Positions 13,598 through 62,598 of a stretch of 64,000 nucleotides of DNA are shown in pieces. The notes beneath the pieces are model-generated. The model was not told where the DNA came from. It saw nothing but the letters and a program-made list of their open reading frames with translations, and ran no database searches. Position 1 is the first letter of the stretch, and the number at the start of each line of letters is the position of its first letter. The stretch comes from a virus, in the IMG/VR virus record IMGVR_UViG_3300030085_002462; one strand, 5' to 3'. The translations under genes and the position numbers were made by a program.

Positions 13598-13603
13598 AAA
13601 ATT

Positions 13604-13953: not shown

Positions 13954-13958
13954 ACTTG

Positions 13959-13969
13959 ATAAATAAATA
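13959..13969 (+). promoter_or_regulatory. Late promoter (two overlapping ATAAATA)
   Basis: Intergenic ATAAATAAATA upstream of the baseplate genes; a further ATAAATA at 14072-14078. Confidence 0.7.
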
Positions 13970-13992
13970 TATCGCACCAGCGGGAGACTGAA

Positions 13993-14121
13993 ATGGCTGT
14001 AAAACCAATTCCTGATCAGAGCAAGGAGTTTATCAAGTCGGGGATGGTGCTAATAACCGACCCACGGAGTGATAAATACCTCAATAAGCATCAAAGCAAA
14101 GAAAAACCAAAGAAGCAGTAA
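13993..14121 (+). CDS. 42-aa hypothetical protein (MAVKPIPDQSKEFIKSGMVLITDPRSDKYL...)
   Basis: Translated by hand; GGGAG upstream; stop abuts the gp25 ATG. Confidence 0.7.
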   Translation: MAVKPIPDQSKEFIKSGMVLITDPRSDKYLNKHQSKEKPKKQ

Positions 14122-14535
14122 ATGGCATCATACAGATTCAGATCTGAAAAATATGTTTCTAGGGGGTTTAAGGATTTCGCCATATCTTTCATGGCAAATC
14201 CTAACACCAACGACTTTGGTGTGGTTAAAAATGAAAATGCCATTAAGCAAGCGGTCAAAAATCTTATTTTGACCTCTTTTTTGGAAAGACCCTTCCAACC
14301 TGACACTGGATCTAGAATTAAAGATTTAATGTTTGAGCCTTATGACCCATTTGTGGGTGAGGCAATGAGAAATGAGCTTAGAAACGTATTACAACGTCTC
14401 GAACCTCGTGTTGAAGTGACCAGAGTGTATATTAGAGAAGAAATTGACATCAATTCTCTACACTTTGAGCTGGATTATAAGATTGTCGGTGAAAACGTCG
14501 TTAAAACCGTAGACTTTCTTTTAGAGAAGACTTAA
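14122..14535 (+). CDS. gp25: Baseplate wedge subunit gp25
   Basis: NENAIKQAVKNLILT...ERPFQP..GS.I..L.FEP...EPRV is the gp25 signature. Confidence 0.93.
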   Translation: MASYRFRSEKYVSRGFKDFAISFMANPNTNDFGVVKNENAIKQAVKNLILTSFLERPFQPDTGSRIKDLMFEPYDPFVGEAMRNELRNVLQRLEPRVEVTRVYIREEIDINSLHFELDYKIVGENVVKTVDFLLEKT

Positions 14536-14536
14536 A

Positions 14537-16648
14537 ATGTCAGCAATCCCTTCACAATTAACTTCCCTTGACTTTTTTGAGATCAAGGAATCAATCAGAT
14601 CATACTTAAGGACTCGCAAAGAGTTTTCAGACTATGATTTTGAGGGATCTGCTGCGTCATACCTGATTGATACCCTTGCTTACAATACTTACTACACAGC
14701 ATTCAACGCCAACATGGCAATGAATGAGGCATTTCTTGAAACTGCCACTGTAAGAGATAATATTGTCCGTATTGCTAAGCAACTTAACTATACACCTCGC
14801 TCTGTTAAGGCATCCAGAGCATGTGTTGAATTGCATGTACAAACAAATCAATCCACTAACGGTGTTACCTATCCAGAATTCGTAACATTGGGTGCTGGTG
14901 ACGTTTTTGTCGCTAGAAACGAAGCAGACGCTTATACGTTTGCAATGCCACAAGATATTCAAGTGCCCGTCAACCAGCAAAATGGTATGGCGATGTTTAA
15001 CAGCGTACTAATCTACCAAGGCAACCTTTTGAAGGCAGATTACGTTGTTGACTACACTAAGAAGCAAGATTATATTGTCCCATCCGAAGATGTGGACACA
15101 GAAACACTAATTGTCCAAATTTCACCAAGTGTGCAGTCATCCGAGACTGATACTTACAATAAAGTGACCAATGCGGTTGCAATTATCAGCACTTCCCGTA
15201 TTTACTACTTGGAAGAGACTGATGATCTTAGATATCGTCTTATTTTCGGTGATGGAGTCCTAGGACGTAAGTTGATTGACGGTGAGCACATCAAATTAAC
15301 CTATATTCGCACAGATGGTCCTCTTGCTAACGGTTGTAAGGACTTTTCGTTTGTTGGTGTTGCTAGAGACTCTGATGGCAGAGCGATTGCACCTCAAAAC
15401 ATTACTGTAAAGACAAAACTTGCCGCGGCCGATGGTGAAGAGATGGAAACACCTCTTTCTATCAAGTTTAGAGCACCTAGAGCATTTGCAACACAGAATA
15501 GAGCAGTTACTGAGTCTGATTATGAGCACATTGTGTCTGAGATCTATCCTCAGGCAGCATCTGTGACTGCATATGGTGGTGAGAAGTTGGTGCCACCTGT
15601 TTACGGTAAAGTTTACATTGCTATTCGTCCTAAAACAGGCACTAAGCTTAATGAGTCAACAAAAGTTGGCATTAAGCAAGATTTATTGAGATATTCAGTT
15701 GCATCGATTGAGCCAGTCATCATCGATCCTACAACTTACTACATTATTCCAAAATCCTACGTTTACTACAACGGAAACCAAACATCTTCCGCTGGTAGTG
15801 ACATTTCAAGTAAAGTCCTCAAGTCTATTGACAACTTTAACCGTAATGGTGTTACAAACCGCTTTGGAAACCGTTTAGAAGCATCTCGCTTTGGTGCGAT
15901 GGTTGACTCTGCTGATAACTCAATCTCTGGTAACGTTACTCAAACAACATTGGGTCAAAACCTTGATCAATTCGCTTTTGGTAACGTTTTCACCCAATGT
16001 CTTGATTTTGGCAATCCTCTATATGATCCTAACAACTTTGCTGGCACGGATCCTAATGGTGGTGCTAATGCTGGCAATGGTGATGATGGGACTGGAAAGT
16101 GCACACCTTCCTTCTCAACGGTTAAATCAGGCACATTCTATGCAACTGGATACACTGAGGATTTGGTTGCCCTTGCAGCGGCAGATGGGACCGTTACAGC
16201 GTCCTTTGGCAGTGCTGTAGTATCAACAAGTGAAGAGAATCAAGTCCTAGTCCCCGTCAATCTAAGAGATGACGGAAAAGGCGGAATCATGCTTGTGACT
16301 AAGCGTGATGAAACAGAATTAATCCTTAACCCTGCAGCAGGTACTGTGGACTACGGCACTGGTAAAGTTTGTGTCGGTCCTATCGCAATCTCAGGTACAC
16401 CAGATGGCACCACTAGAGTGCCATTGCAGGTTCTTCCATATGGTGGTGCAATCAACATTCCACCTGGCGTTGATCCTGTTATCTTTAACCCAGAAGTTTT
16501 CGCAATCGATTATACAGTGAATGACACCCCTGTCCCCATCTTCGATCCTAATAATTTCAGTGGATTTAACTTCGGAGATTTGAATATAAATATTCTTGAT
16601 TATCCTTCGGATACGTTTGTATATCCTGAAATCGATAACTGCTTCTGA
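14537..16648 (+). CDS. gp6: Baseplate wedge subunit gp6
   Basis: LDFFEIKESIRSYL...DYDFEGS...LAYNTYY...NEAFLETA..RDNIV..AKQLNYTPRS; QNRAVT..DY. Confidence 0.95.
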   Translation: MSAIPSQLTSLDFFEIKESIRSYLRTRKEFSDYDFEGSAASYLIDTLAYNTYYTAFNANMAMNEAFLETATVRDNIVRIAKQLNYTPRSVKASRACVELHVQTNQSTNGVTYPEFVTLGAGDVFVARNEADAYTFAMPQDIQVPVNQQNGMAMFNSVLIYQGNLLKADYVVDYTKKQDYIVPSEDVDTETLIVQISPSVQSSETDTYNKVTNAVAIISTSRIYYLEETDDLRYRLIFGDGVLGRKLIDGEHIKLTYIRTDGPLANGCKDFSFVGVARDSDGRAIAPQNITVKTKLAAADGEEMETPLSIKFRAPRAFATQNRAVTESDYEHIVSEIYPQAASVTAYGGEKLVPPVYGKVYIAIRPKTGTKLNESTKVGIKQDLLRYSVASIEPVIIDPTTYYIIPKSYVYYNGNQTSSAGSDISSKVLKSIDNFNRNGVTNRFGNRLEASRFGAMVDSADNSISGNVTQTTLGQNLDQFAFGNVFTQCLDFGNPLYDPNNFAGTDPNGGANAGNGDDGTGKCTPSFSTVKSGTFYATGYTEDLVALAAADGTVTASFGSAVVSTSEENQVLVPVNLRDDGKGGIMLVTKRDETELILNPAAGTVDYGTGKVCVGPIAISGTPDGTTRVPLQVLPYGGAINIPPGVDPVIFNPEVFAIDYTVNDTPVPIFDPNNFSGFNFGDLNINILDYPSDTFVYPEIDNCF
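16585..16592 (+). promoter_or_regulatory. Late promoter inside the gp6 3' end, serving gp7
   Basis: Exact T4 late consensus TATAAATA, 68 nt upstream of the gp7 ATG. Confidence 0.6.
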
Positions 16649-16659
16649 CCTAGAGAGAT

Positions 16660-19600
16660 ATGTCTTCACAACTGGCAAAAAGAGTCAACGTATCCGATAG
16701 AGTTGAATATCAACTTCCTGAGTTTATTAGAGAGGACGATAGACAATTCGTTAACCTTCTTCTTGAATACTACAGATCTCAAGAGAAAACAGGGCGTCCT
16801 TACGATGTTCTAAACAACATCATCAATTATCTTGATCTTGACAACTATGGATCTGAAGGGTTGTCAGCTGAAACTCTTTTGCTTCGTGATATTGGTATAA
16901 CTGACCAATCGATTGAAGTTGAGACCATTGATGGTTTCACAGAGAAAAATGGATCGATTCTGATCGATAATGAAATCATTTATTATGAATCTGTATCTAG
17001 AGGTCCTGACGCTATCCTGACGCCAGGTATTTCCTACGATCAGTTTAAGAAAAAGGAGCAGCAACTAGAGAATCCCTTTTCCCTCTTTGACGGCACTCGT
17101 AGAAGGTTTGATTTAAGCAACCTAGGCACCCCTGTAGCGCCCCCTACTGCCAATCACCTCCTAGTTACCACATATAACAACTTCCTCATCCCTAACGTTG
17201 ATTATACCGTTGATGGTGATGAAATTGTGTTTACCACACCACCTCGTTTGAGGACTGGTGTTGATGATTCAGAATTTACTCAACTCGTTTACCTTGTAGG
17301 TTATGCTGATCAGAGCGTCCTTGAAATGGACGACATCAACTATGAAGTCTATCAAGGTAAGTCAGAATATCCTCTAAAACTGAATGGGTCTAACTATTAT
17401 CCCACTTCAGAGATCGGTCTGATTGTTAATAAGAATGGCAACCTTCTTGTGCCATTTCAAGACTACGTTATTTTCCAAACCAACGATGGAAGCTCTTTTG
17501 TTTCCTTTAATGCTGGTGCTTTGGGTGCTGCTGATGTAATTCATATTAGATCTGTCGAATATAACGCACCTCAGTATGGATCTGGTGCAAAACTAATTTG
17601 TGAAGTTAACGAATCCTCTAAAGCACTCTCTGGATTGCAAGTTAAGAGTGGCGGTAGTGGATATCGTCTAGATTTTGCTCCTAAGGTCGCTATTGTCTCC
17701 ACAACTGGTGAAGGTGCTGCAGCAAGATCACTTGTTGGTGGTATTAAAGATATTCAACTTATTAGTGGTGGTCAAGGTTACACATCCTTCAACCCACCCA
17801 TTCCTTTTGTATCTGCTCCAACAAATCCTAATGGATCTAGAGCAGAGATCGAAATTGAGGTAGATGATACATCTGGACAAGTCTCTTCTATCAGAATTAC
17901 TAACTCTGGTAGTGGATATGACTTTATTCCTGCAATTTCTTTCATCAATCCTGCTGGTGCAAAGATTAGTGATCCAACAATCGACTCTGAAGGTCGTGTC
18001 AACGTTGATAGCATTCAGGTTACTAAAACTGGTGTAGGATATAAGAATGCTCCTGTTGTTTACATTGATCCAGCACCTGACGGTGGTATCAATGCTCAAG
18101 CAACTTCTAGAATCAACTCTGATGGTCAAGTTATTGAGATTCAAGTCAATAACAGAGGTAGAGGATATGTAACTCCTCCTAGAGCAAGAATTATCGATCC
18201 AGTTGGTGCTCAAGTCCTTGATGTAACTGTTGCATCAGGTGCTGTCACTGAAATTGAAATGTTGACTGGTGGTATGGGTTATACTGATCCACCATCTGTG
18301 TATATTGTTGATGATCGCAAAGATGCTTACGGTAATCCCGTTGGTGGACAAGGTGCTAAGGCAGTTGCGACTATTTTTAACGGTGAGATCACTGATATCA
18401 ACATTACTGACTTTGGTAGTGGATATTCTGATCAATTCCCTCCAAAAATCTATATTGCTGAGCCTGCTGCTGCTAAAGCATCTGTAAATATCGGATATGA
18501 TGAAGTTACTGGTTTTGAAATCATTAGAGGTGGTAAAGAGTATTCTCCATCAGCACTTTTAGGTTGTGCTCGTGGTGTTTCTAATGTTATTGGTTTTGAT
18601 GACCTTGGAAACCAAATTTATGCAAGAGAAGAGCAACTTGCTAACACTAACCATAATGCAGGGACCAGAATTGTTAATCTGGACTCTATTTTCGTTAAAG
18701 AGGTCTTTGATCGTTTTAGAAGGCAGTATCTGCCAACTCTAGAGATCAACTATGACAGAATTAACCCTGTCCAAGTAATTAAGACCATTAGAGACTTCTA
18801 TGCCTCTAAAGGCACTAAGATGTCTACTCAATACCTCTTCAAAATTCTGTTTGGAGAGGATGTTGATGTTTTCTATCCAAAAGACGAAATTATCAGTCCT
18901 TCCCATGCAACTTGGGTTGTTGACACGATTCTTCGTGCAGAATTGATTTCTGGTGATCCTAGAAACCTAATTGATGGTCAACTTAACCAATATAGAGATG
19001 AAGTTGACACAAACATTAGAGAAGCATCTGCTTTGATCGAAAACGTCATTTCTATCATTCAAGGCACCGATACAATCTACGAATTGGCGATTTCTGAGGA
19101 AACGCTCGTTGGTCAGTTTATAATTCCTTATAAGACTCGTCTTGTCGAGCCTTTGAATACAACTGGTCAAATTATCACGGTTGACTCGACGATTGGATGG
19201 CCTGAGAGAAATGGCACCATCCTAATCAACGATGAAGAGCAAGTCCAGTATAAAGAGAAGTCTCTTAACCAATTCATCGAATGTACTCGCTCTAAAAACG
19301 GTATTGTAGAAGATTGGGATCCTGGCACTATTGTCCAGTCCGATATCTTCGTTTATGTCAATAAAGACACTCCTACAGAGTGTAAGTTGAGAATTCTTGG
19401 TATTGCTGAAGCAGGCACCACTGTTTTGGATGATACTGGATCTTACTACCTTCCTAGTGACAAATTGAAGGTTGCATCTCTGGGATCTTCTGCAGAAGAT
19501 GAAAGACTGTCTTCTTGGCTTTATAATGTTAAAAAACTAATCCAGGTCTCCAGTGTTACGCCTGGTGGTGATAATAATCAAACTGCAACTGTTGTTTGCG

Positions 19601-22600
19601 ATAACCCTCATGGTTTGTTGGTTTCTGACCAAGTTACGATTTATGGTGCAAACCCTGTTATCTACAACGGCACATTTGCTGTTACTTCTCGTATTGACGA
19701 ATATCAATTCTCATACCGTCTAGCACAGCCTACAGACATTATTCCACAGGGTAACATTCTACTTTCGGTGGACCTCAACCGAGGAAAATCTGATGTTACT
19801 TCAATCAACAAGGTTGTTTCTGAGTTTACAACTAATATCCAAAACTCCTTCTTTAACGATGATTATGTCTATGTTGCTGCTAGTGGCTTACCTAATTACA
19901 AGATTGGCCCTTTCACAGGATCCGCGTTAATTCCTGGCAACCAGCGTAAGTTGATGCGTTTCCCAAGAAACGTATTGACTGTTTCTGAAAGACAAGACAT
20001 TCAACCCAATACCTCAATCGGATCATGGGTTAATGGTGTTTCTATCTGGTCTTACAAGTCTTCTGAGTATGTCCAGTTTGGTCCTCTTACCAATATCACT
20101 GTAGATGGTGGTGGTGAAGGATATGATGCTGGCGCTAAACCCAACCTTGAAATTATTGGTGGTGGCGGCACAGGAGCATCAGGTAGTGTTGTTGTTAACG
20201 GTAGTCTCACATCTTTCGATGTTACTGAAGGTGGTAGTGGATATACCGATTCACCTCTAATCTCCATCGTTGGCGGTGGTGGTAGTGGAGGCACAGCAAG
20301 AGCCGTCGTTACTGGTGGTCGCGTCACCAGAATTCTGGTTGATTCACCAGGTACAGGATATACATCACAACCTGACGTTGCTATTACAGGTGGTGGTGGA
20401 TCTGGTGCTGCAGCGACTGCAAACGTCCGTGGTCCAATCTCATCTGTGATGATTGACAGTTTTGGTAGTGGATATACTTCACTGCCTCAAATCAGAGTTA
20501 ACTCTGGTGAAAATGCTTTGGCACAACCTATTGTTATTAATGGTCGTATTGTTTCAATCGCTATTATTAACTCTGGTAACTCTTACACCACAGCACCTAA
20601 CGTCATTATTAATGGTGATGGTTTCGGTGCTATTGCTCAAGCAACCATTGGCACATTTGGTGAAGATAAGGGTAAAGTGCTTAGTATTCAAATCCTTAAC
20701 AGAGGTATTGGATATACTCAAGGAAACACTACTGTTAGACTGGAAGCAGTTGGTCAGAATGCAACATTCACACCTACTGTTTACAGATGGTATAGAAACA
20801 ATCAGTATGACCTTGGTAGTAACTATGACTTTGCTAGAGGTTATGTCTTTACTGGTCTTAATAACGCATTCGGTGGTGAGTATGCTCACCTAAGTGATCC
20901 TAAGGAATTGCGTTATGTGGTTGGTGATAACGTATTCTTGAATCCTGTTACCCAACAATTCCAAGAGCTTTCTTCCAATTTTAGTCATTCTCCTATTCTT
21001 GGATGGGCATTTGATGGTAACCCCATCTATGGTCCTTATGCATATGCAGATCCAACTGATCAAAACAGTGGTATCCGTCGTATGCGCACTTCATACAAAT
21101 TGAAGACAAATGTCGTATTTGACGCTGCAACTAATCCCAATCCTTCAAGGACAGATGGTCCTCCACTGGCATCCTATCCTGCAGGACAATTTGTTGCTGA
21201 TTACTACTACGATTTCCAATCTGGTGACCTAGACAACTATAACGGTCGTTTCTGTAAGACACCTGAGTATCCTGATGGTGTATATGCATATTTCATCACT
21301 GTTGATGCTTCTGAAGCTGGTGTTGCAGAATTCCCTTATATCCTTGGTCCTCAGTTTAACTCTCTTCCAGATCAGTGGAATTTGGGTCAAGGTGCAACTC
21401 AGGAAAATATTCCTCAAGATGTTGTCCGTTATAGAGATCCTTATGTCAATGTTGACATTGATATTGATCGTCAACCAAACCAAGAGTCAGATGTCCTAAC
21501 AACTGAGATTGAAGGATATCCTCTCATCTTTGAGATTCAAGATAGCAACAATGATGGTGTTATTGATGCTTCTGAGCAGCAAGAGACCTTAGAGATGACT
21601 ACAGAGGCAACTCTGCAGATCTATGACTACTTCCCTCAAGTCCCACCTGAATCAAGAGTTGACATTGAAGTTGAGACAACTACTCAGTTTGAAGATGCTC
21701 AAATTGACGGATTTGTTATTGAAAACCCTGGCGTTTCTTATCAGGTTAATGATACTGTTTTCTTCAACAATGAAGGCACAGAGGGTTATGGTGCGTCCGC
21801 AATTATTGATTCTGTTAAGGGTCAAGTAATTCAAGCATATCAAAAAGAAATTATTGGTGACCAACCTTATGGTAAGATCACCACTGCTGAAATTCACGAT
21901 TTGAAACAGCAAGACGGTATTATTGTTAACTCTAGACCTATTGCTGATAATACCAACAAAGCATTTAAGAATGTTGTTGTATCTGGTATTGAGACTGTTT
22001 CTATCGATCAGGTTGGTAGAGGTTATAATTCAGACCTCCCTCCTGTCTATGAATTGATCACATCACAAGGTAGTGATGCTGAATTTAGAATTAATCTAGA
22101 ATCTAATGGTGGTATTAGCACCGTTGATATTCTTAACTCTGGTAATGGATACGATGTTGATAATCCTCCTCAGATTCGTGTTACCCATCCTCAACAGTAT
22201 AAGAAGACTCGTTACTGGTTGAGTGAGTATATTGAAGCTGATGGTCAGTTGATGATCCATGATAGTAAGATCACTGCGGATCGCTATCTGTATATTTGTG
22301 GATCTATTGAAATCGGCAATGGTAACATGGCAGGTTTCCTTGCTAAGTTTGATGATCTTGGAAGACTTGTTTGGGAAAGACACTTACAACCTATTAACAC
22401 TGGTGATAAGAGAAGTGAATTCCTTAGAATGTATATCAATGAGTCTTATGAAAACGACCGTATTTATGTTGCAGGCCAAACTTATTCTCCTACAAACGAC
22501 CTGTTTAACCCAGATATTTGGGTTGGTATGTATGAGTCTGGATTTAACACTGCAAACGCTCCAGACGGTCTTCTTCAATGGCAGAAGTCTATTGCAGGTA

Positions 22601-37248: not shown

Positions 37249-37251
37249 ATA
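37245..37251 (+). promoter_or_regulatory. Late promoter
   Basis: CTAAATA overlapping the gp7 stop. Confidence 0.6.
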
Positions 37252-37262
37252 CAAGTAAAAAG

Positions 37263-38846: not shown

Positions 38847-38849
38847 ATA
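38843..38849 (+). promoter_or_regulatory. Late promoter
   Basis: CTAAATA overlapping the stop, 23 nt before the next ATG. Confidence 0.6.
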
Positions 38850-38871
38850 AAACTGTAGAAATCCAAGCACG

Positions 38872-40788: not shown

Positions 40789-40790
40789 TA

Positions 40791-42662: not shown

Positions 42663-42666
42663 GTCC

Positions 42667-42674
42667 CATAAATA
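42667..42674 (+). promoter_or_regulatory. Late promoter
   Basis: Intergenic CATAAATA upstream of gp8. Confidence 0.7.
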
Positions 42675-42695
42675 AAAAGAAGGTATCGGTAGAAA

Positions 42696-44231: not shown

Positions 44232-44232
44232 G

Positions 44233-50200: not shown

Positions 50201-51519
50201 GTGATACTTATGACACTTATCCTACTGCCGCTCCTACATATTCAAATGATGATAAGGAAGTCTTGGTGTATCACAGAAACCACTGTATGCATCAACGCAC
50301 AAACAACGTAGAGGTTTCTGGAATTGTTTCTGAGATCCCTTCTACTACTCTGACTTCTACTCTGTCAGTTGGTGCTGGTAGTATTCAGGTGCAGGATGCT
50401 TCTGCATTCCATACGATTATTAATGGCACAGGAATTGGTAACTTGAATCCTGGCTTTATTAAGATCGGCACAGAAATTATTAAATACTCTGCTATTTCTA
50501 CTAGCGGACAAACCATTACAGTTGCAACTTCTGGTAGAGGATCTAACTCTACTGCTGAGCAAGAGCATCCCTCTGGCACAGTTGTTGAATGTTACAACCT
50601 TGATGGTATTCCTCTGACAGAAATCAATAAGGTCCATACCAGCATTTCTTGCCCATGGTTGGATACTTATATGTTGCACGTTGATAGTGTTGCAACAAAT
50701 GGAATTCGTGCAGGTGGCACAGGCGTTATTGCTTCTCAGAATGTCCAGTATGAGACTTTGACACCTACTGTCTCCACCATGAATCTCCCAGAGACTAATA
50801 TTCTTGCTCGTGTAAATACTACTACGGGCACGTCAATCGGTGATGGATCTACCAACATCGACCAAGCGTCCTTTGTTAACAATGGCACATACGAGGATGT
50901 TGTCCTCAATGAGCAAAATAGATTCTATTCACCTCAGTTGATCTGCTCCAAGATTAACGAGCAAAACAAACTTGATGGTGGTAAGTCATTTAACATGATT
51001 ATTGAGTTGTCTACTGATAAGCCATCTCTATCCCCATGTATTGACTTGGATCGTTGCTCTCTGATTACAACCACCAACCGTATCAATGCATGGCCAGGCG
51101 GTCCTGATCCTTATGGACAACAGTCTAATATTGATAGGGATCAAGATGTTTCGACACTTCCTACGGGTGATCAAAACGACGCAGTATACATCACACGTCT
51201 CGCCCGCTTGGGTCAAGAGGCTAGATCTCTCAAGGTTGATTTCCAAATCACCAGACATCCTGCTTCTGAAGTCCGCGTATACTACCGTGCATTTAAGATC
51301 GGTAATGCTACATCCAGCGAAGAGACAGGTTGGACTCTGTTAGGTCTGCCTACGAATTATGACTCTACTCCTTCCGAGGAAATTCTTTATAAGGATTATG
51401 CCTATGAAGCAAGAGGTCTTAACTTCAACGCATTCCAAGTGAAGATCGTTATGAGATCTACTAACCAAGCAAGAGTACCTCTAATTGCTGATCTTCGTGC
51501 TACTGCTTTAGCTACTTAA
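44233..51519 (+). CDS. Large virion structural protein (2428 aa; DUF4815/VrlC-like)
   Basis: MPQNTNLNIAPYFDDFD..KNFYRVLFRPGYPIQARELT..QSILQNQ; DRLKNGYVVDDF; YDPLAQSF; SQNASTWTA.QYEDLKF. Confidence 0.88.
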   Translation: MPQNTNLNIAPYFDDFDKDKNFYRVLFRPGYPIQARELTTMQSILQNQVESIGTHFFKEGAMVIPGQIGYDLNVQAVILQQSFLGVDVETYRTQLNGQIIEGITTGVKAKVLYSIPSTESERGYITLYVKYIDSGDTTSSESLKGFQPNEQLLAENEITFGTTLIEIGSPFAQLLPVDATAVASSAYINAGVYFIRGHFVDVPSSYLILEQYSNNPSYRVGLEVSESIITPEDDPSLNDNAAGTSNYSAPGGHRFRIRTSLVKKAINDETDKNFIELLRINNSKLEQFVNNTEYSELERSLARRTYEESGDYVIDTFDIKMREHLDDGFNNGVYRAGAQSREGNAASEDMLAIEVSPGRAYVKGYRTEFLVPQYVDAPKPRDFNSEENAIVSFNLGQFVKVYDVYGWPDLTGEGVTDAYQVLEMRDDWALNPGSSVTGRQIGRCRTIQIQEDQTGIYDLYMFDIQMYTAVNLAAGNQSVQVGDVIVGRTSNARGFVADAGSGNYFSLEQVSGRFVNGEVMERDGRVIGTLEAAWTFEPTDTRSCVGRNSSNQVIFGCNWLLNDQREIEATTVTLDQSAFTLTGFRTKFENDLRPGEVVTVSGTSAEGETSFRIERVDPQYIKTQSGNSHTGASYNVFDYATQVARVDPTLNKGSISNGEYSVLARLRPYIFQKDYQNGELTIDTPKTSMKSISDESFFVYRTFTNKTVVSGGVTVTLPESEQFASLDGENYVLTILSQSGSAYTVGQNLDIDALNDGGQLTVTFGASRQSITIDGLTNVQTVKLTALVSKNIVSKKIKTAAKMRAMKVVRTQNNNDQQKFGLAYGNLYGTRIEDREISFALNDVYKIHAIYESEDDQDAEAPFLTLQEATFFDSGSVVIGRTSGARGRVIQFINATLKLHIVALNEIPFLPGETIDGVDDDSQPLSAIIDDAEGSIGRGSKVITTQYELDPGQKAHFYDVCKITRIPGFTAPTRKLLVIFDYFIHESSGDYFAAQSYTGIPFKEIPNYKLDGSINFLRDQLDFRPAVGELASGNGTIGAPYFVNCASLDFAARTFNTSGGTGGATIFDIMKVDTEFRMDYSYYLPRIDKLFITHDNKLQVVKGVSGEDLLPPEGIENAMLLAVLEHKPYNYDVERDTLIFPEIIRRYTMKDIGDLETRLTHVEYYTSLSLLEVQADNAKSYDDNGFDRLKNGYVVDDFTDHTIGDVLNVDYKCSMDFKEGLLRPAHYTTNVPLEFNASASNNVVRTESNMIFLPWQDVEIVKQPYASRTENVNPFNVFTFIGRVDLTPASDDWIDIERLPARVENVEGDFSAVARDLQIDQNGFAPIQWGSWQTNWTGESLQSSSSFQSRSGTYGIGRQLGRAGHGQRRQGLFYLHERRTYRVVNNQARQGIRTRVVPKIDRKSLGDTILSQTAIPWIRSRNIGFNVDRLKPRTRMYAFFDGVDVTNYITPKVIELIKNSSEDTRTNETPFVVGETVIGESSKCQLQVVAANDGYKTDPYGVGEATLPESYASQTPVLNIDLKALAETVNPNFFGNAQTGEVLVGQTSGARAVVKDRRLLSDNIGNLQGTFFIPSPKNDANPRWATGTRTFRFTTSNTNSRSPGEVDSSADTEYKATGTLQTVRENILAIRNAQIVRDTVTDERQVITTRTETRQVGWYDPLAQSFIVDEEGGIFLTGVDIFFNTKDSNIPISMQIRTMENGYPTKDILPFSDVTIDPSQVELSDNAAIPTRFTFQSPVYIKQSIEYCFVLLSDSNEYKVWISRMGDVEVSGTRTISDQPYAGVLFKSQNASTWTADQYEDLKFTIYRADFTASIGNAVFNNAELGLGNGGVHNLIENPIQTLKPKQQLLLPTGTNNNFTIGARIIQTPSNAEGTIVEFDSTSDPEVITISDIVGSWQAGFLDANGNPFQGIKSSQSTATIVLSAIFNGVFEVNNTITGSTSNATAKVTNYDAGTQTLSVNFVDGAFDLADTLSEPGGTSATITSVSYAGDTYDTYPTAAPTYSNDDKEVLVYHRNHCMHQRTNNVEVSGIVSEIPSTTLTSTLSVGAGSIQVQDASAFHTIINGTGIGNLNPGFIKIGTEIIKYSAISTSGQTITVATSGRGSNSTAEQEHPSGTVVECYNLDGIPLTEINKVHTSISCPWLDTYMLHVDSVATNGIRAGGTGVIASQNVQYETLTPTVSTMNLPETNILARVNTTTGTSIGDGSTNIDQASFVNNGTYEDVVLNEQNRFYSPQLICSKINEQNKLDGGKSFNMIIELSTDKPSLSPCIDLDRCSLITTTNRINAWPGGPDPYGQQSNIDRDQDVSTLPTGDQNDAVYITRLARLGQEARSLKVDFQITRHPASEVRVYYRAFKIGNATSSEETGWTLLGLPTNYDSTPSEEILYKDYAYEARGLNFNAFQVKIVMRSTNQARVPLIADLRATALAT

Positions 51520-51546
51520 AGCTCCTTTGCAACCCTTACATGGTTG

Positions 51547-51575
51547 ATTATAATAATAATTGAGGCACTTGTCAA
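51547..51575 (-). promoter_or_regulatory. Perfect-consensus sigma70 promoter, antisense to the late structural module
   Basis: Minus strand reads TTGACA (51575-51570), N17, TATAAT (51552-51547); no minus-strand gene follows. Confidence 0.7.
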
Positions 51576-51577
51576 GT

Positions 51578-51835
51578 ATGGCACAAACCAACCCCTATGA
51601 TCCAGATCTCATCCCCGTTGAGGGGAAAGAAGGCTGGTATCGTGACCCATACTCCAATGCAATCGTGAATTGCAATAAAAGTGAGTATGATAAATATATG
51701 GCAGCGCATGATAAGCGCACCAAAAAAGATGAATCCTTCTCTACTTTACAAGATGAAGTAAAAGGGTTAAAATCTGAATTGAATGACATCAAACGTTTAC
51801 TACACATTATTGCTAACGGAGATCAATCTAAATGA
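51578..51835 (+). CDS. Conserved hypothetical coiled-coil protein (IPVEG..GWYRDP.SNAIVN.NKSEY)
   Basis: ATG 51578 preferred over the track's TTG at 51560. Confidence 0.85.
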   Translation: MAQTNPYDPDLIPVEGKEGWYRDPYSNAIVNCNKSEYDKYMAAHDKRTKKDESFSTLQDEVKGLKSELNDIKRLLHIIANGDQSK

Positions 51836-52041
51836 CACTTGACGTACCTGAAACAATGGACCAATCAGAATTGCTTGAGCAATTCAAGACACGCTATCAG
51901 AATTTGGTAACTGAGAACCAGAAACTCCAAAAACAAATTCGTGATAATGAAGCAACAGCACTGAAACTCATGGGTGCTATTGAAACTCTTGAATATCTGG
52001 ACAGTCCACCCGAGGACAAAACTGAGGAAGCGGGTGAATAA
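51832..52041 (+). CDS. Small coiled-coil hypothetical protein (KLMGAIETLEYL)
   Basis: 69-aa ORF followed by a terminator. Confidence 0.8.
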   Translation: MTLDVPETMDQSELLEQFKTRYQNLVTENQKLQKQIRDNEATALKLMGAIETLEYLDSPPEDKTEEAGE

Positions 52042-52046
52042 GATAT

Positions 52047-52070
52047 AGCCCCCGTAAAGGGGGTTTTCTT
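52047..52070 (+). terminator. Rho-independent terminator
   Basis: CCCCC-GTAAA-GGGGG hairpin followed by TTTTCTT. Confidence 0.8.
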
Positions 52071-52077
52071 ATAGACA

Positions 52078-52085
52078 TATAAATA
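52078..52085 (+). promoter_or_regulatory. Late promoter
   Basis: Exact TATAAATA, intergenic, upstream of the long fibre gene. Confidence 0.85.
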
Positions 52086-52126
52086 AACCAGCAGACAATG
52101 TGTGCAGTTGCAGGATCCTTTAAGCA

Positions 52127-55100
52127 ATGGCAAATAGAATACAACTAAGAAGAGACGGTGCTCAGCAATGGGCAAACGTCAACCCTATCCTTGCCCAAGG
52201 TGAATTGGGTATCGAGATCGATACGTCGCGTATCAAAATCGGTGATGGCGTTACGCCGTGGAACTCGCTTAAATATGAGCGACCACTAGAAACCGAATCT
52301 AATACCGCCAACACTCTGGTAAAGAGGGATGCTGACGGTAACTTTGAGGCGGGTGCAATTACTGCATCGCTGATTGGTAATGCTGCGACTGCAACAAGAC
52401 TGGCAAACTCCAGACAGATCCAACTGGGTGGTGACATGTCTGGTAGTGGCACGTTTGATGGATCCTCAAACTTGACCATTACTGCAGAATTGAATTATGT
52501 TACAACTCTGCCACACTATGATCAGAATGATCTTGACGCACAAGGCACATATACAAAACTAACTATTGACTCTCGTGGTCGTATTGTTAACGCATTCAAT
52601 CCCACGACTCTAAACGATTATGGAATCGTTGACGCGCAACCTCTTGATAGCGACCTGACATCCGTTGCTAGTATGACCACTTTCGGTCTGATGTCTCGTC
52701 AGGCAGAAGGTAGTATTGTCACTCGCACCATCACTGGTGGTAGTGGTCGTATTATTGTACAGAATGGTAACGCACAAACCAACAACCCCTTCCTTGATCT
52801 TGCTGATACGGCAGTTGTTGTTGGCACATATAACCCTGTAGGACTTGGAGATACCCCTCTTGTTTCTGTAGGCACAGGTTCTCAGACTGTTAATACTACA
52901 AACTTCACAGTTGACAGATACGGTCGTTTGACTTATGCTCAAACCAGTCCTATCGCAACTGCAACGGAGGGAGCGAAGTCTGGCACATCTTTCACCACTT
53001 ACGATAACGCTGTTGCGTATCCTAGATTTTCAAAGATTATTGCTCCTAATGGTAGAGTATATCAAGCTGCTATTCGGGATGTCGGAGCAGGACTCGGAGC
53101 TCCAACGCACAACACAAACAATGGTGATGCAGACGATCAAGGTGGATGGAGAGATCTGGGTGCTGATTCCGTCGAGCAAAAGGGTCTTGCGAGTTTCGAC
53201 CAAGAAGACTTCAATGTAGATGACAATGGTCATGTAACGATTGCTGCAGACGCAATCGAAAATACTCAGTTACAATCTGCTGGTAAACTTATGTTTACCG
53301 ACCAAAATGCAACTGAAGAGTTTATTCTCGACAAAGAGCGCACAACTGACAATGCCTATCATGGCATCACTAAAGTAAACCATGTTAACATCAACAACCG
53401 CACTGGTAATTCTGTTTTCAGAGTTGTTGGCTACGATACTGCTGAGTATCCCTTCCAACCTTCCATCTTGTCGCAGGGTAATTCTTACCCCGCTATTAAT
53501 GCTGATGATGCTAACGGCAATGGGAGCGCCACAAGCGGTTCTTCTCTTACTGGCGCTGTTGACATTAATCTTGACACTACCCTTTCTGGTAATCTTACCC
53601 TCGACGTTGCAAAAGCCGATCAATTCATAAAGAGGACTAGCGGCAATCTTGAGGTTGCTCTAGAGATTAATGAAACTAACAACCGCTCGATGGATGTTAA
53701 TGTCACCAACGCAGGTTCTGGTGATGCAACATTCAATCTGACTGTTGATCAAGACATTACTATTAACGTTACCGATGTTGATCATCGCGTTAACGTAGAA
53801 GACTTCCACATTCAGGATAATGTGTTGTCAACCACCAATTCCATCATGGTGCTTGACCCTGCTGATGACGATGACATTAGTGGCACAGTCCGTATCCGTG
53901 GAGACTTGACTGTTGATGGCACCACGACTACAGTTAACTCAACTACAGTCACCATCGATGATGTCATTCTTACCTTGGGCGGAGACACAACACCAACGCT
54001 CGATGATGGAAAAGACAGAGGTGTTGAATTCCACTATTATGATTCACAAGCAAGAAAAGGATTCTTCGGGTGGGACGAAAATTACGCGGATGCTAACATA
54101 TGGTCTGGCACTGGCGGGTATAGGTTCCTCTACAACGCGACTAACACAAGCGAAGTTTATTCTGGTACTGACGCTCCTCTCATTGCTGGTAACCTCAGAC
54201 TAACAACTAATACGTCTTCTACTTGGAAGACACCTACAACTGGCACATTGGTAGTAACTGGTGGTGCAGGTATTTCTGAAAACCTCAACGTGGGTGGCAC
54301 AACTCACCTGAATGGTAACGTTGAGATTGATGGCACACTTGATATTGATGCCAACTTTGCTATCAGAGATGGCAGCACTGATAAGTTTACTGTTGCCAGT
54401 GCTACAGGTAATACTGTTATTGAAGGCACACTGGATGTCCAGCTGGAAACTGAAATTACAGATAACCTAATTGTAAGAGCAGATAATAAAGTATTTGATA
54501 TTAAGACAGATGCTGGCGTATCTAAGTTTACTGTAGATACCGATAATGGTAATACTGTCATTGAAGGCACAGTTAATGTCAAGCAAGGCGTTGACTTTGA
54601 TAGCACACTGAATGTCGATAGCGATGTAACCTTCAACGCAACATTGGATGTTGACGATGATGCTACATTCCACAACGACATTACACTTGATACCACTGGT
54701 AAATTCTTTACAATTACCAATGGTAGTAGTCAGACTTTCCGTGTAACATCGACAAATGGTAACACAGATATTGAGGGTAGTCTTAATGTTGGTGGCATCA
54801 ACACTTTTGAGCGCACTAACAATATCGTTATTGCTGAAACTACAGACGATATCACATTAAGCAGTGTAGGTAACGCTACCTTTGCTGGTGGTGTAAACAT
54901 CGATAAGGATGTAAGAATCGGCACCGATCTGTACGTGGCCGATCGTTTAGTCGTCAAAGACGCTGGCACAGCACGCACACGTCCTTCACTTCTCAACAAC
55001 GTTGATGTCCTGTATCGCACCTATCTGGGTGGTGGCACAGCACACAACGCATCTTTCGCAGATGATGCTGATGCTCAACTTAGAGTTGCAGGTGGCGTAG

Positions 55101-58100
55101 GTATCGTCCAAGACTTGTATGTCGGTGACGATTTCTATATTGGTAAGGTTTCCAACACAGACACTATTGAATTCCAAGTCCTTGGTGAGTCTGGTGCTAC
55201 TACAATCGGTCGTGTTGGACAGGGTGGCACAACAGATGGATCACTTACAGTCCACGGTGATGTCACATTTAACCGTGATGTCACATTTAATGGTGACGCT
55301 CTAACCTTTGGTGTTGATGCAACTGATGTATTGACAGTCAATGCTATCTCCACATTTACTGACAACGTTACTGTTAACGGTGACTTGGATGTTGATGGTA
55401 ATACCGTTATCGAAGGTAACCTGACTGTTAACGGCACAACTACAACTATTAACTCTACAACTCAGACTCTGGACGATCCCGTCTTTACTCTGGGTGGCGA
55501 TACTGCTCCTTCTCAGGCAGATGCTAAGGATAGAGGTATTGAGTTTAGATATTATTCTGGCAGCGCACAGATTGGTTTCTTTGGTTGGGATAACTCTGCT
55601 GGTCGCTATGCTTTCTATCATGGAGCGACTAATTCTTCAGAGGCATTCTCTGGCACCCGCTCTGGTATTGACGCTGGATCACTCAAACTATTTGATACAA
55701 CCAATTCCACATCAGCATCTACAGGTGCACTGATTGTTGGTGGTGGTGTTGGTATTGGTCTAGACCTTACTGTTGGTGATGATCTTATTGTTACCGATGA
55801 CGGTAGTTTCGGTGGCAACGTAGATATTACTGGCACATTAGATGTCACTAATGACCTTGCAGTCAATGGTAATAAATTTACTGTTGTTGCCAGCAACGGT
55901 AACACATATGTTGCAGGCACTTTCCAAGTTGATGGTAACGCTACCATCGGTAATGCTGGATCTGATAACCACATTGTTACTGGCACAGTAACATTCAACC
56001 AAGCAATTACATCTACTGACATCACTGCTGATCAGATTGAGATTGGTGTTGATGGTCCTACTGAAATCAGCACTACTTCTGGTAACCTGATTCTTGATTC
56101 TGATGGCGGCACTGTCAACATCACAGATAATGCTGACGTAGACGGTAACCTCAATGTTGATGGCAATACACAGATTGATGGCACGCTCACGGTCGATGGC
56201 AACACAACTATCGGTAATGCTGCTGGGGATGCTCACAGCGTCACGGGTACTGTCCAATTCAACCAAGCGATTACTTCCACCGACATCACGGCGGACAACA
56301 TCAAGATCGGCGTTGATGGTGCGACCGAAATCTCCACCACATCAGGAGACCTGATCCTTGATTCTCAATCAGGTAAAGTCCATATCACAGACAATGCTGA
56401 GGTTGATGGTAACCTTCAGATAGATGGCAACACAACTCTTGGTGACGCTTCTAGCGATACTCTGACAGTTAACGCTACATCTACATTTAACGCTCAAGTT
56501 AATGGTAACGCAGCGATCTGGAATAACCTAAGAATTGGTTTTACAAACAATAATGAGATTGATACCTCAACTGGTAATCTGACTCTGGATTCTGCTGGTG
56601 GATCAACTACTATCGATGATGATCTTTCCGTAACTGGTGCGTCAACTTTAACTGGTCAACTTACAGTTAATGATAGCATCTTGATTGATGCTACCAATGA
56701 GCAATTCCGTGTTAGAAGTAGTCTGGTTGATAGATTTACTATTGACAGTGATAACGGTAACACCTTCATTGCTGGCACAACTCAGATCGAAGGTCTGACA
56801 ACCATCAATGATAACCTTGATCTTAATGGTAATGGTGATGTATCTGGCACTCTGAATGTTGCTAATATTGTCTATGCTGATAGCACTGATGGTGCTAACC
56901 TTGGTAATAATTTCGCTGCTGATGGTGCTCTAAGAGTTGCAGGTGGTGCAACAGTTGCACAAAACCTTGGGGTTGGTGGAAATCTTCAGGTCTATGGTGA
57001 CCTTGAGATTGATGGTAATCAGGTCAGTAAAGGTAACCAAGAATTCCGTGGTCGTGTTGAATTCTCCAAGTCTGATAATCCTAACAGTCTGACTGCTAAT
57101 GCAGCAATTATGGTCACCGCTGGTGGTGTCACTGTTGCTGAGGATATGTTTGTTGGATCTGACCTCTTCCTTGGTCCTAACAACGGCACAACCATTACAC
57201 TTAATGGTGCTACAGGTAATGCTTCTATTGGTGGCACACTCGGTATCACAGGCACAACAACTGCTGCTGTAATTAACGCTTCGTCGGTCAATACATCTGC
57301 ATCTGTTGGTATCGGTGGATCGCTGCTGATTAACACTGATAAGTTTACTGTCCAAGGTAGCACAGGTAATACAGACATCGCTGGCACACTTGATGTTGAT
57401 GGTGCAACAGTTATTGATGACACCCTGAATGTTACTCAGGCAGTTGACTTTGATAGCACACTTAATGTTGATGGTGAGTCTACCTTCAACGCTGCTATTA
57501 CACAAAACAGCACTTCACTGTTTAAGGATAATTTCGTCCTTCGCGGTGCATCTAAGACACTTAAGTTACAAAACGGTAGTGGCACTGACAAGATTACTCT
57601 TGCTTCTACAACTGGTAATATTACTGCCGCTGGTCTCACAACCACTAACACCTTTGAGTCTGTTTCTAACGCTACCATCGGTGGCACATTGGGTGTTACT
57701 GGACAAATCACTGGTAACATCACTGGTGATCTTACAGGTACTGCTGATAAGGCAGATCTGGTTGAAATCACTGAGACTGCTTCTTCTAACCTTACTTACT
57801 TCATTCCATTCGTTTCTACGAATACTGGATACACTGAAGTCCGCACAGACTCTAGCAACCTTAGCTACAACCCATCAACTAACAGACTGACTGTTAATAA
57901 CTTCAGATCAACAACTGACTTTGAAGTCCAAGGTAACTTGACTATTACAGGTAATATCTTGTATGGTCAGTCACAGGTTGGTAGTATTGCTAACCATGAC
58001 ACTGACGCTCTGTCAGAAGGCACCTCTAATCTCTACTTCACTGATGAGAGAGTTGATGATCGTGTTGCTGGTTTGATCAACGCTGGCACTGGCATCTCTG

Positions 58101-59146
58101 CTACTTATGATGATGCAGGCAATATGCTTACATTGTCTGCCGTCCAAGCAGATCTGAATACTGATAATATTACTGAAGGTAGCACAGCACTGTTTACTAC
58201 TGCTGCACGCACTCGCTCCCACTTCACATACGGCGTGGGTATTGAGTTGTCTGGTGCTGGTGAGTTGAGTGTCACTCAAGCAGATATCAATACTGATAAC
58301 GTCACGGAGGGATCAACAAATGTCTTCTTTACGAACGCTCGCGCTAGGGGTGCATTTAGCGTTGGTGGCGATCTCGGTTACAACGCTTCTACTGGCGAAT
58401 TCTCATTCACTGAGCGCACAGATGCTGAGGTAAATGCACTTGCTGATACTCGTATCGCACTGAATGTTGGCACAAACCTTGACCTGAGCAATCAGGACAC
58501 TGGTGATCTGGCAGAGGGCACTAACCTCTACTACACCAACGCTCGTGCTGATGCTCGCATTGCACTTCAAGTTGGTGCAAACCTTGATATTAGCAACCAG
58601 TCCACAAGCGACCTGTCTGAAGGCACTAACCTTTACTACACACAAGCTCGTGCTGATGCAAGAGTTGATGCAGGATTTGCTGCTAAGGACACTGGTGACC
58701 TTGCAGAAGGCACTAACCTTTACTACACAGACGCACGCGCTGATGCTCGTGTCGCCGCTGCTGCTAGTAACTATGCTACTGCTGCACAAGGCACGCTGGC
58801 AGATTCCGCTACACAACCAGGAGATCTGGCAACTGTAGCAACCAGCGGATCTTACAATGATCTGTCTAACTTGCCTACGCTCTTCTCTGGTGCATATGCT
58901 GATCTAACTGGCAAACCTACATTATTCTCTGGTGATTATGATGACCTAACCAACAAACCTACGTTGGGCACTGCTGCTGCAACCGCAGCAACTGCATATG
59001 CAACTGCTGCACAGGGATCTAAAGCAGACGCTAACGATACTGACATAGATGACATCTATACTCAGTTGGTTGCGATTGGTAATGACACTAACATCTCAAC
59101 AGTCGCACAACTCAAGACTGCACTACTCGCACTCGCTAGAAGTTAA
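52127..59146 (+). CDS. Long tail-fibre-like protein (2339 aa)
   Basis: N-terminal RIQLRRD.A.QW...NPILAQGELGIEIDT.RIKIGDG (Mtd-N/hyaluronidase-type); extensive TL.V.G beta-repeats; C-terminal EGTNLYYT.ARA repeats. Confidence 0.88.
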   Translation: MANRIQLRRDGAQQWANVNPILAQGELGIEIDTSRIKIGDGVTPWNSLKYERPLETESNTANTLVKRDADGNFEAGAITASLIGNAATATRLANSRQIQLGGDMSGSGTFDGSSNLTITAELNYVTTLPHYDQNDLDAQGTYTKLTIDSRGRIVNAFNPTTLNDYGIVDAQPLDSDLTSVASMTTFGLMSRQAEGSIVTRTITGGSGRIIVQNGNAQTNNPFLDLADTAVVVGTYNPVGLGDTPLVSVGTGSQTVNTTNFTVDRYGRLTYAQTSPIATATEGAKSGTSFTTYDNAVAYPRFSKIIAPNGRVYQAAIRDVGAGLGAPTHNTNNGDADDQGGWRDLGADSVEQKGLASFDQEDFNVDDNGHVTIAADAIENTQLQSAGKLMFTDQNATEEFILDKERTTDNAYHGITKVNHVNINNRTGNSVFRVVGYDTAEYPFQPSILSQGNSYPAINADDANGNGSATSGSSLTGAVDINLDTTLSGNLTLDVAKADQFIKRTSGNLEVALEINETNNRSMDVNVTNAGSGDATFNLTVDQDITINVTDVDHRVNVEDFHIQDNVLSTTNSIMVLDPADDDDISGTVRIRGDLTVDGTTTTVNSTTVTIDDVILTLGGDTTPTLDDGKDRGVEFHYYDSQARKGFFGWDENYADANIWSGTGGYRFLYNATNTSEVYSGTDAPLIAGNLRLTTNTSSTWKTPTTGTLVVTGGAGISENLNVGGTTHLNGNVEIDGTLDIDANFAIRDGSTDKFTVASATGNTVIEGTLDVQLETEITDNLIVRADNKVFDIKTDAGVSKFTVDTDNGNTVIEGTVNVKQGVDFDSTLNVDSDVTFNATLDVDDDATFHNDITLDTTGKFFTITNGSSQTFRVTSTNGNTDIEGSLNVGGINTFERTNNIVIAETTDDITLSSVGNATFAGGVNIDKDVRIGTDLYVADRLVVKDAGTARTRPSLLNNVDVLYRTYLGGGTAHNASFADDADAQLRVAGGVGIVQDLYVGDDFYIGKVSNTDTIEFQVLGESGATTIGRVGQGGTTDGSLTVHGDVTFNRDVTFNGDALTFGVDATDVLTVNAISTFTDNVTVNGDLDVDGNTVIEGNLTVNGTTTTINSTTQTLDDPVFTLGGDTAPSQADAKDRGIEFRYYSGSAQIGFFGWDNSAGRYAFYHGATNSSEAFSGTRSGIDAGSLKLFDTTNSTSASTGALIVGGGVGIGLDLTVGDDLIVTDDGSFGGNVDITGTLDVTNDLAVNGNKFTVVASNGNTYVAGTFQVDGNATIGNAGSDNHIVTGTVTFNQAITSTDITADQIEIGVDGPTEISTTSGNLILDSDGGTVNITDNADVDGNLNVDGNTQIDGTLTVDGNTTIGNAAGDAHSVTGTVQFNQAITSTDITADNIKIGVDGATEISTTSGDLILDSQSGKVHITDNAEVDGNLQIDGNTTLGDASSDTLTVNATSTFNAQVNGNAAIWNNLRIGFTNNNEIDTSTGNLTLDSAGGSTTIDDDLSVTGASTLTGQLTVNDSILIDATNEQFRVRSSLVDRFTIDSDNGNTFIAGTTQIEGLTTINDNLDLNGNGDVSGTLNVANIVYADSTDGANLGNNFAADGALRVAGGATVAQNLGVGGNLQVYGDLEIDGNQVSKGNQEFRGRVEFSKSDNPNSLTANAAIMVTAGGVTVAEDMFVGSDLFLGPNNGTTITLNGATGNASIGGTLGITGTTTAAVINASSVNTSASVGIGGSLLINTDKFTVQGSTGNTDIAGTLDVDGATVIDDTLNVTQAVDFDSTLNVDGESTFNAAITQNSTSLFKDNFVLRGASKTLKLQNGSGTDKITLASTTGNITAAGLTTTNTFESVSNATIGGTLGVTGQITGNITGDLTGTADKADLVEITETASSNLTYFIPFVSTNTGYTEVRTDSSNLSYNPSTNRLTVNNFRSTTDFEVQGNLTITGNILYGQSQVGSIANHDTDALSEGTSNLYFTDERVDDRVAGLINAGTGISATYDDAGNMLTLSAVQADLNTDNITEGSTALFTTAARTRSHFTYGVGIELSGAGELSVTQADINTDNVTEGSTNVFFTNARARGAFSVGGDLGYNASTGEFSFTERTDAEVNALADTRIALNVGTNLDLSNQDTGDLAEGTNLYYTNARADARIALQVGANLDISNQSTSDLSEGTNLYYTQARADARVDAGFAAKDTGDLAEGTNLYYTDARADARVAAAASNYATAAQGTLADSATQPGDLATVATSGSYNDLSNLPTLFSGAYADLTGKPTLFSGDYDDLTNKPTLGTAAATAATAYATAAQGSKADANDTDIDDIYTQLVAIGNDTNISTVAQLKTALLALARS
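57990..58960 (+). repeat. Tandem repeats in the fibre C-terminus (TDxLxEGxxNLY(Y/F)TxARAxAR, about 6-7 copies; then SGxYxDLxxKP, 3 copies)
   Basis: Near-identical DNA, e.g. ggacactggtga...gaaggcactaacct(c/t)tactacac at about 58495, 58615 and 58690. Confidence 0.85.
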
Positions 59147-59150
59147 TTAA

Positions 59151-62034: not shown

Positions 62035-62037
62035 ATA
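62031..62037 (+). promoter_or_regulatory. Late promoter
   Basis: ATAAATA overlapping the gp16 stop. Confidence 0.6.
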
Positions 62038-62595: not shown

Positions 62596-62598
62596 AGA

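Follow-up and report, generated by a model that had tools for sequence, protein, structure and literature searches.

Genome-wide purge of GAAC/GTTC and GTAC in a T4-like cyanophage is associated with carriage of a restriction-modification-like gene pair

Two short words, GAAC (GTTC on the opposite strand) and GTAC, are strongly depleted in the DNA of a T4-like cyanophage known from the IMG/VR virus record IMGVR_UViG_3300030085_002462, and the depletion of the former coincides among related phages with carriage of one gene pair. The stretch under study, called the window in the following, comprises 64,000 nucleotides and maps to 123081-186016 of a virus record that is 186,016 bp long (G000; GC content 42.6%, complete according to CheckV) plus ~1 kb outside this contig. 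At its left border lie the 3' end of ORF200, an open reading frame (ORF) encoding a protein with the fold of a type II restriction endonuclease, and an overlapping gene for a DNA methyltransferase. The purge of GAAC/GTTC, and probably that of GTAC, is best understood as self-avoidance of the target of this restriction-modification (R-M)-like pair by the phage that carries it, a reading to which we assign a probability of roughly 0.66.

The phage belongs among the T4-like cyanomyoviruses (Kyanoviridae). A megablast search of the phage collection with a 5.4-kb part of the window as query gave no match, and protein searches placed the phage instead. The closest named phages, with 70-79% identity in gp15, are S-SZBM1, P-TIM40, S-WAM1, and P-RSM6; of these four, only P-TIM40 has ORF200. 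In the window, Pfam recognizes gp6, gp8, gp9/10, gp14, and gp15 of the T4-type baseplate, neck, and tail, and psbA is present in the genome.

On the + strand of the window, GAAC is found 8 times, GTTC 20 times, and GTAC 34 times (6, 15, and 28 times within 14537-59146), where a second-order Markov model predicts ~527 GAAC/GTTC and ~196 GTAC sites. In a further null model, synonymous codons were shuffled within genes, so that the proteins and the codon usage of each gene were preserved (200 shuffles, whole genome). Against this null, the genome harbors 160 GAAC/GTTC sites with 1270 +/- 28 expected (ratio 0.126, z -40) and 133 GTAC sites with 581 +/- 17 expected (0.23, z -26). Genome positions 138001-180000 (window 14921-56920) contain 20 GAAC/GTTC sites versus 341 expected and 26 GTAC sites versus 164, and in the baseplate/fibre block the observed/expected (O/E) ratios fall to ~0.06 and ~0.16, respectively. 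An initial annotation of the window, made from the letters and the ORF translations, had described a strong but incomplete depletion of GWAC/GTWC across the structural genes. Both nulls uphold the depletion; it does cover the structural genes, but it is not restricted to them, since the purge is genome-wide.

The codon shifts from which this depletion had been deduced by hand are borne out by exact tallies. In the gp7-like ORF, Gly before Thr is shifted to GGC (GGC 60, GGT 5, GGA 0). Glu before a codon starting with C is almost always GAG (35, with 2 GAA), and Gly before TCN is rarely GGT (2, with 32 GGA). After a codon ending in G, AAC/AAT stand at 0/50, TAC/TAT at 0/47, and TTC/TTT at 1/39. 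All three codon phases are depleted, GAAC and GTTC are affected to the same degree on the coding strand, and the depletion is nearly uniform over every 5' and 3' neighbor base, therefore the avoided cores are 4 bp long. The changes that remove sites fall on motif positions 2, 3, and 4 according to the codon tallies. Because all phases, both strands, all flanks, and several motif positions are affected, the purge reflects selection that acts at the level of double-stranded DNA against a 4-bp word. Loci of Cyanobium and Synechococcus, which represent candidate host DNA, show GAAC/GTTC ratios of 0.83-1.00.

Three other origins of the bias were considered and rejected. A codon-pair preference is incompatible with the involvement of all phases and both strands, and the bias is absent from the candidate host loci and from 13 related phages. 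Selection at the mRNA level does not account for an equal loss of GAAC and GTTC from the coding strand in every phase. Deamination or decay of a single base, which the initial annotation had already judged less plausible than selection, disagrees with the spread of changes over motif positions 2, 3, and 4 and over phases and strands.

The distribution of ORF200 bears on the origin of the purge. Homologues occur in only 17 named-phage records (P-TIM40, S-MbCM6/25, S-MS29, S-RIM4, S-H35, Syn10, and Syn9, in which the gene is gp61). In 60-kb samples of complete genomes, the GAAC/GTTC ratio is 0.05-0.28 in eight of eight carriers (G000, P-TIM40, S-MbCM6, Syn9, S-H35, S-RIM4, S-MS29, and G403) and 0.84-1.10 in 13 of 13 non-carriers. 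When all 136 classes of 4-mers are compared between the two groups, GAAC/GTTC separates them best (log2 difference -2.87, Mann-Whitney U test, p 1e-5) and GTAC second best (log2 -0.96, p 2e-3); otherwise, only one-step mutational neighbors of these two words stand out. Phages of the same host strain differ with carriage. Among phages isolated on Prochlorococcus NATL2A, the carrier P-TIM40 has a GAAC/GTTC ratio of 0.11, whereas the non-carriers P-RSM6 and P-SSM4 have 0.88 and 1.10. WH7803 is the isolation host of the carrier S-MbCM25, whose ORF200 match has the same identity as that of S-MbCM6 (ratio 0.28), and of the non-carrier S-PM2 (1.01). S-RSM4, for which no host is named in the record, has a ratio of 1.06.

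Metagenomic loci extend this association. Each of the 17 IMG/VR contigs carrying a close ORF200 homologue is depleted (GAAC/GTTC 0.00-0.22), and the same range holds for the 24 IMG/VR loci whose homologue is at least 70% identical, without exception. A profile search enlarged the family to 54 loci. The 37 further, more distant family loci have ratios of 0.09-0.87 with a median of 0.23; GATC, too, is low at some of these loci. On the gp15 tree, carriers and non-carriers are interleaved, and at least three changes of state are needed. Several pairs are nearly identical in gp15 yet very different in GAAC/GTTC depletion, e.g. 0.09 versus 0.62 (L058/L071, L040/L043, and G404/G406), suggesting that purged and unpurged genomes have recombined. 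Within G000, the genes closest to a normal GWAC density are zwf, gnd, the PTOX/alternative oxidase gene, and a staphylococcal nuclease (SNase)-like gene (G000 2164-6933). As zwf, gnd, and PTOX are host-derived, their near-normal density agrees with a slow loss of sites from recently gained DNA.

ORF200 has no sequence match in Pfam, NCBIfam, or the PDB, and the protein is identified by its fold only. The AlphaFold (AF2) model (pLDDT 89, pTM 0.86) retrieves almost exclusively type II restriction endonucleases in Foldseek. Structural alignment with VIA-align places it nearest to the NaeI/EcoRV branch of the PD-(D/E)XK fold, with a Z score of 10.3 for the NaeI domain (root-mean-square deviation 3.6 A over 152 residues), 7.5 for 3ndh, 7.4 for DpnI, 7.2 for BglI, and 5.6 for EcoRV; HincII is also matched (EcoRV, DpnI, BglI, and HincII together span 5-7.5). 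Identity in these alignments amounts to 8-16%, and ORF200, with its 200 residues, differs from NaeI in having no Topo-like second domain. The D...ExK triad of this branch is present: D84, E93, and K95 (GYD..x8-16..ExK) are invariant in 34 ORF200 homologues, as are the motifs TGNNHSK and NNNGF, and the catalytic residues are invariant even among homologues that are only 40% identical.

A model of two ORF200 copies predicts a symmetric homodimer, as in the NaeI/EcoRV branch, with an interface formed by the N-terminal helices. Its ipSAE is 0.67, compared with 0.00 for the best control; at least 77% of the contacts are shared between runs, and the pLDDT is at least 84. Of 30 solved homodimers, 20 reach the mark applied to ipSAE, as does one of 23 monomers. 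This pass may partly reflect likeness to, or recall of, solved restriction endonuclease dimers. The modelling supports, though it does not demonstrate, a dimer of ORF200. In the vicinity of the gene, a perfect palindrome with 9-bp arms (AGGTGCACA...TGTGCACCT) is located ~40 nt upstream of ORF200, at positions 776-801 of locus L084 (genome 122427-122452). A scan for promoters and terminators around the ORF200-methylase pair gave nothing better than shuffled sequences.

The partner gene encodes a methylase with a Pfam N6_N4_Mtase match (5.6e-42) and a TSPPY motif IV visible in the translation. Its best solved relatives by sequence are the cytosine-N4 methyltransferases 8s9m/8s9n, M.MboIIA, and M.PvuII, and it is probably an N4-cytosine enzyme itself. 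The gene directly follows ORF200 in all six named carrier phages that were inspected, and the 17 phage records with ORF200 are also precisely those in which its orthologues with 80-84% identity are found. Between genera, ORF200 is only 42-52% identical, compared with 80-84% for the methylase; a methylase more conserved than its nuclease is usual for R-M pairs in general. G000 contains two further methyltransferase genes (34650-35585 and 67582-68412), one D12 Dam-like and one CcrM-like, each adjoining a gene for a 2-oxoglutarate (2OG)-Fe(II) oxygenase. The D12 Dam-like methylase is found in seven of seven carriers and in 12 of 13 non-carriers. GATC is not depleted in G000 (O/E ~1).

According to the reading favored here, the early region of the phage encodes a type II R-M-like pair, composed of the PD-(D/E)XK protein ORF200, a predicted homodimer, and the overlapping SPPY methyltransferase. 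From the correlation of the purged words with carriage, we infer that the site cut by ORF200 would be short and degenerate and would take in both GAAC/GTTC and GTAC, being either GWAC or GWWC, the latter with the phage Dam shielding GATC. Two targets would suit a symmetric dimer, namely GWWC with GATC masked by Dam and GTAC read with a relaxed half-site on one side. Nearly all of these phages have Dam, and its presence therefore does not separate the two. All four GWWC words are low in some distant ORF200 subfamilies (L290-297, L314, and L316, which are fragment contigs, and G411). The DNA of the host and of non-carrier cyanophages, with one GAAC/GTTC site per ~100-110 bp, would be cut often, while the pair methylase would shield the DNA of the phage itself. 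Newly replicated DNA would remain unmethylated for a short time, so that every remaining site would carry a small cost and be lost in a slow synonymous purge. Such a purge of the residual risk on new DNA would explain why the depletion is strong but incomplete, at 5-10 fold. About 290 GWAC sites are left in the genome, and the methylase must therefore do most of the protecting. CCGG, unlike GWAC, is wholly absent, and no phage methylase for CCGG was found. The pair might be used for degradation of host DNA, exclusion of competing phages, or both.

A bolder version of this proposal holds that the pair represents a family of offensive R-M weapons in lytic cyanomyoviruses (Syn9 gp61/gp62 and relatives), in which the nuclease would read GWAC/GWWC and cut hosts and rivals about every 100 bp, and the carrier would be saved by N4-methylcytosine together with the purge. 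It is put forward tentatively, and we would sooner bet against it than for it.

Several observations weigh against self-avoidance as the explanation. The carriers are related, so that the comparison offers 2-3 phylogenetically independent contrasts only and a sign test is not significant. Some of the more distant ORF200 subfamilies show a weaker depletion (0.45-0.87), one genome with no ORF200 homologue (G404, 87% complete) is intermediate at 0.72, and G406, with a homologue of 33% identity only, has ratios of 0.38 for GAAC, 0.58 for GTAC, and 0.49 for GATC. The specificity suggested for ORF200 is a correlative one, and a symmetric dimer such as the predicted one would not naturally read the asymmetric GAAC. 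If the methylase does most of the protecting, the strength of the purge is not self-evident. Finally, GTAC is purged in phages with no ORF200, such as Syn1 and P-HM1, and part of the GTAC signal could come from another cause.

This last point is the core of the strongest alternative, according to which two agents act: the phage nuclease would target GAAC/GTTC only, and GTAC would be purged through an ordinary RsaI-type enzyme met by many lineages. GTAC is indeed low at normal GAAC/GTTC in Syn1 (0 sites with 192 expected), P-HM1 (0.24), S-RSM4 (0.36), and S-SM2 (0.40), and some ORF200 loci combine a low GAAC/GTTC with a near-normal GTAC (0.13/0.71 at L311, 0.23/0.74 at L315, and 0.47-0.49/0.78-0.88 at L298-299). 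Against two agents, the GTAC ratio is 0.07-0.29 in all eight carrier genomes and frequently near their own GAAC/GTTC value. The two ratios are correlated over 57 IMG/VR loci around gp15 (rho 0.82) and across 6-kb bins of G000 (rho 0.59), and at the 57 gp15 loci neither correlates with RGCY, GATC, or CATG. The gp15 tree offers seven independent pairs of contrasting GAAC/GTTC state; the GTAC difference has the same direction in five of them and the opposite direction in none, with two ties (p 0.06). Two separate agents are on this evidence rather unlikely. The single GWAC motif proposed by the initial annotation stands insofar as both words co-vary, and fails insofar as GTAC is also purged alone.

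A non-Dnd GWAC defence present in some host populations might instead have selected for the purge, with the phage pair as a counter-defence or a captured copy. Host R-M systems are the standard explanation of site avoidance in phage genomes and drive it widely, and in the survey concerned asymmetric sites were not systematically avoided (Rusinov et al., 2018, PMC6286503). The statistical signature is the same here, and G000 also avoids CCGG, RGCY, CAATTG, TTTAAA, and TTCGAA, the first four of which have no matching phage nuclease among those found. The isolation hosts may, moreover, differ from the natural ones. Yet none of the 13 pair-less phages avoids GAAC/GTTC, several of them being from the same strains as carriers; the agent acting on GAAC/GTTC would thus travel with the phage and not with the host. 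Candidate host DNA is undepleted, and the search for a host counterpart of the nuclease, made with the ORF200 family, gave no match in the 401 genomes covered, which sample the family of Synechococcus RCC307, i.e. hosts of the phage's relatives. A protective methylase alone would, in addition, make the purge needless. Such a host defence appears improbable.

It is very improbable that the methylase itself drives the purge, by marking sites that attract a host type IV nuclease or mutate faster. Its association with the purge is as tight as that of ORF200, but the substitutions are found at motif positions 2, 3, and 4 and not at one methylated base, loss of the methylase would be a simpler escape, and the catalytic residues of ORF200 are kept across homologues with ~40% identity.

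The initial annotation had proposed the footprint of a host Dnd phosphorothioation-restriction system, with or without a separate GTAC enzyme, and this is the explanation that we credit least, hardly at all. The depleted word is identical to the canonical 4-bp Dnd consensus GAAC/GTTC, and Dnd systems modify motifs of the GNNC type that are picked by DNA shape (PMC12914056). However, only 10-15% of the consensus sites are modified, and cutting at the motif by DndFGH is not known (PMC10853773). The survey of candidate hosts for dnd genes that had been suggested returned DndC (TIGR03183) in none of the 401 sampled genomes of the picocyanobacterial host family, although the same search passes the cut-off in 111 of 401 genomes across the phylum, all of them larger genomes, which serves as a positive control and indicates that DndC is common in large-genome cyanobacteria. 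Non-carrier phages of the same hosts are undepleted, and the purge follows the phage gene pair and does not track the host.

Self-avoidance as such has precedents. Genomes with an R-M system reportedly avoid its recognition site, as described in work of Gelfand and Koonin from 1997 and of Rocha et al. from 2001. Here, too, only genomes with the R-M genes are depleted, the sites have been lost through synonymous changes, and neither strand is spared. The present case differs in that the carrier is a virulent T4-like phage and not a cell, that the site (GAAC/GTTC and GTAC) is not a simple palindrome, and that the enzyme is known from sequence, with its specificity deduced from the purge. To our knowledge, a depletion of 5-20 fold as seen here is far above the usual bacterial self-avoidance. 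Chloroviruses offer another parallel: their R-M enzymes, e.g. R.CviAII/M.CviAII of PBCV-1, degrade host DNA, and the viruses are described as relying on methylation. Both cases concern a lytic virus with a type II nuclease and a methylase, for which degradation of host DNA and self-protection are proposed. Unlike in chloroviruses, the sites are purged in addition in the cyanophage, the proteins are unrelated, the host is a bacterium, and the system is known from genes alone. Site avoidance in phages and avoidance of own R-M sites in bacteria are known. In the literature searched, no account turned up of the present purge, of a lytic cyanophage that removes the sites of its own nuclease, or of the ORF200 family; nor did the searches yield an enzyme specific for GWAC/GTWC or, for marine viruses, methylation at GAAC/GTTC.

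The results have several implications. Motif avoidance in a phage need not signal a host defence and can signal the phage's own nuclease. Comparative genomics alone assigns a candidate specificity (GAAC/GTTC and GTAC) to a nuclease family, and its methylase, that is uncharacterised, and this family is available in cultured model phages (Syn9 gp61/gp62, P-TIM40, S-MbCM6/25, and S-H35). Cyanomyoviruses are devoid of denA, denB, and ndd of T4, and it has been postulated that they degrade host DNA by a route not yet described (PMC2984593). If the proposal is true, the pair would be a candidate for this missing route, and it would bear on the competition among co-infecting marine phages. The site density along a genome marks recent imports such as zwf, gnd, and PTOX and can serve as a tracer of mosaic evolution; the purge would then be a record of segments newly arrived from non-carrier phages or hosts.

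The features of the window are compiled in Table 1. The final 1064 bases (62937-64000) are real sequence beyond the G000 contig and have no match to the start of G000; either G000 differs from the exact source of the window, or its circle is not closed at this point.

Table 1. Features of the 64,000-nt window, in window coordinates unless stated otherwise.
Feature	Position	Strand	Basis or remark
3' end of ORF200 (200-aa restriction-endonuclease-like gene)	1..16	+	full gene G000 122494-123096 = L084:843-1445; starts 587 nt before the window
SPPY beta-class DNA methyltransferase	1..839	+	ATG 1 nt ahead of the window; overlaps ORF200 by 17 nt
Purge of GAAC/GTTC (28 sites left) and GTAC (34 left)	1..64000	both	extends over the remaining 186-kb genome
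Early-gene region with zero GTAC and zero RGCY	1..8500		inside a ~24-kb stretch, genome 108-132 kb
Baseplate/fibre gene block	14537..59146	+	ORFs, Pfam, codon tallies
gp6-like	14537-16648	+	ORF list, Pfam
gp7-like ORF, 6862 aa	16660-37248	+	single ORF at the gp7 position of the baseplate cluster
YHYH protein	37263-38846	+	ORF list, Pfam
gp9/10-like	38872-40788	+	ORF list, Pfam
gp8-like	42696-44231	+	ORF list, Pfam
Large ORF, 2428 aa	44233-51519	+	
Large ORF, 2339 aa	52127-59146	+	

GWAC is one of several avoided motifs, so that the initial annotation was right in naming it and incomplete in naming it alone. In the whole-genome codon shuffle, CCGG occurs 0 times versus 168 expected, and GGCC (0.21), AGCC/GGCT (0.34), and AGCT (0.37) are also low, the next-lowest word, TCGA, reaching only 0.59. 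Palindromic 6-mers purged across the genome are CAATTG (0 versus 75), TTTAAA (0 versus 46), and TTCGAA (3 versus 44). Words containing CCWGG are low in G000 as well (CCTGGA 29 versus 92, CCCAGG 3 versus 40). CCGG is missing from every related cyanomyovirus locus examined (L001-L081), with the exception of S-SM2 (23 sites in 60 kb), and is found once per ~60-230 bp in candidate host DNA. RGCY is represented by 2 sites versus ~137 expected over the early genes at genome positions 108000-132000 and is ~3-fold depleted elsewhere in the genome. This early-region gap could mean that DNA entering the cell early is purged harder, or that the segment stems from a lineage that has purged RGCY completely.

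The fully purged words differ by cyanomyovirus lineage, as seen among the relatives L048, L050-052, L057, L061, L065, L079, L033, L035, L037, L044, W15, W16, and W17. CATG is purged in one clade, GATC in another, and AGCT/RGCY in a third. Individual phages show purges of their own, namely of CTAG in S-SM2, of GCGC in P-HM1 and P-TIM40, and of GTAC in Syn1.

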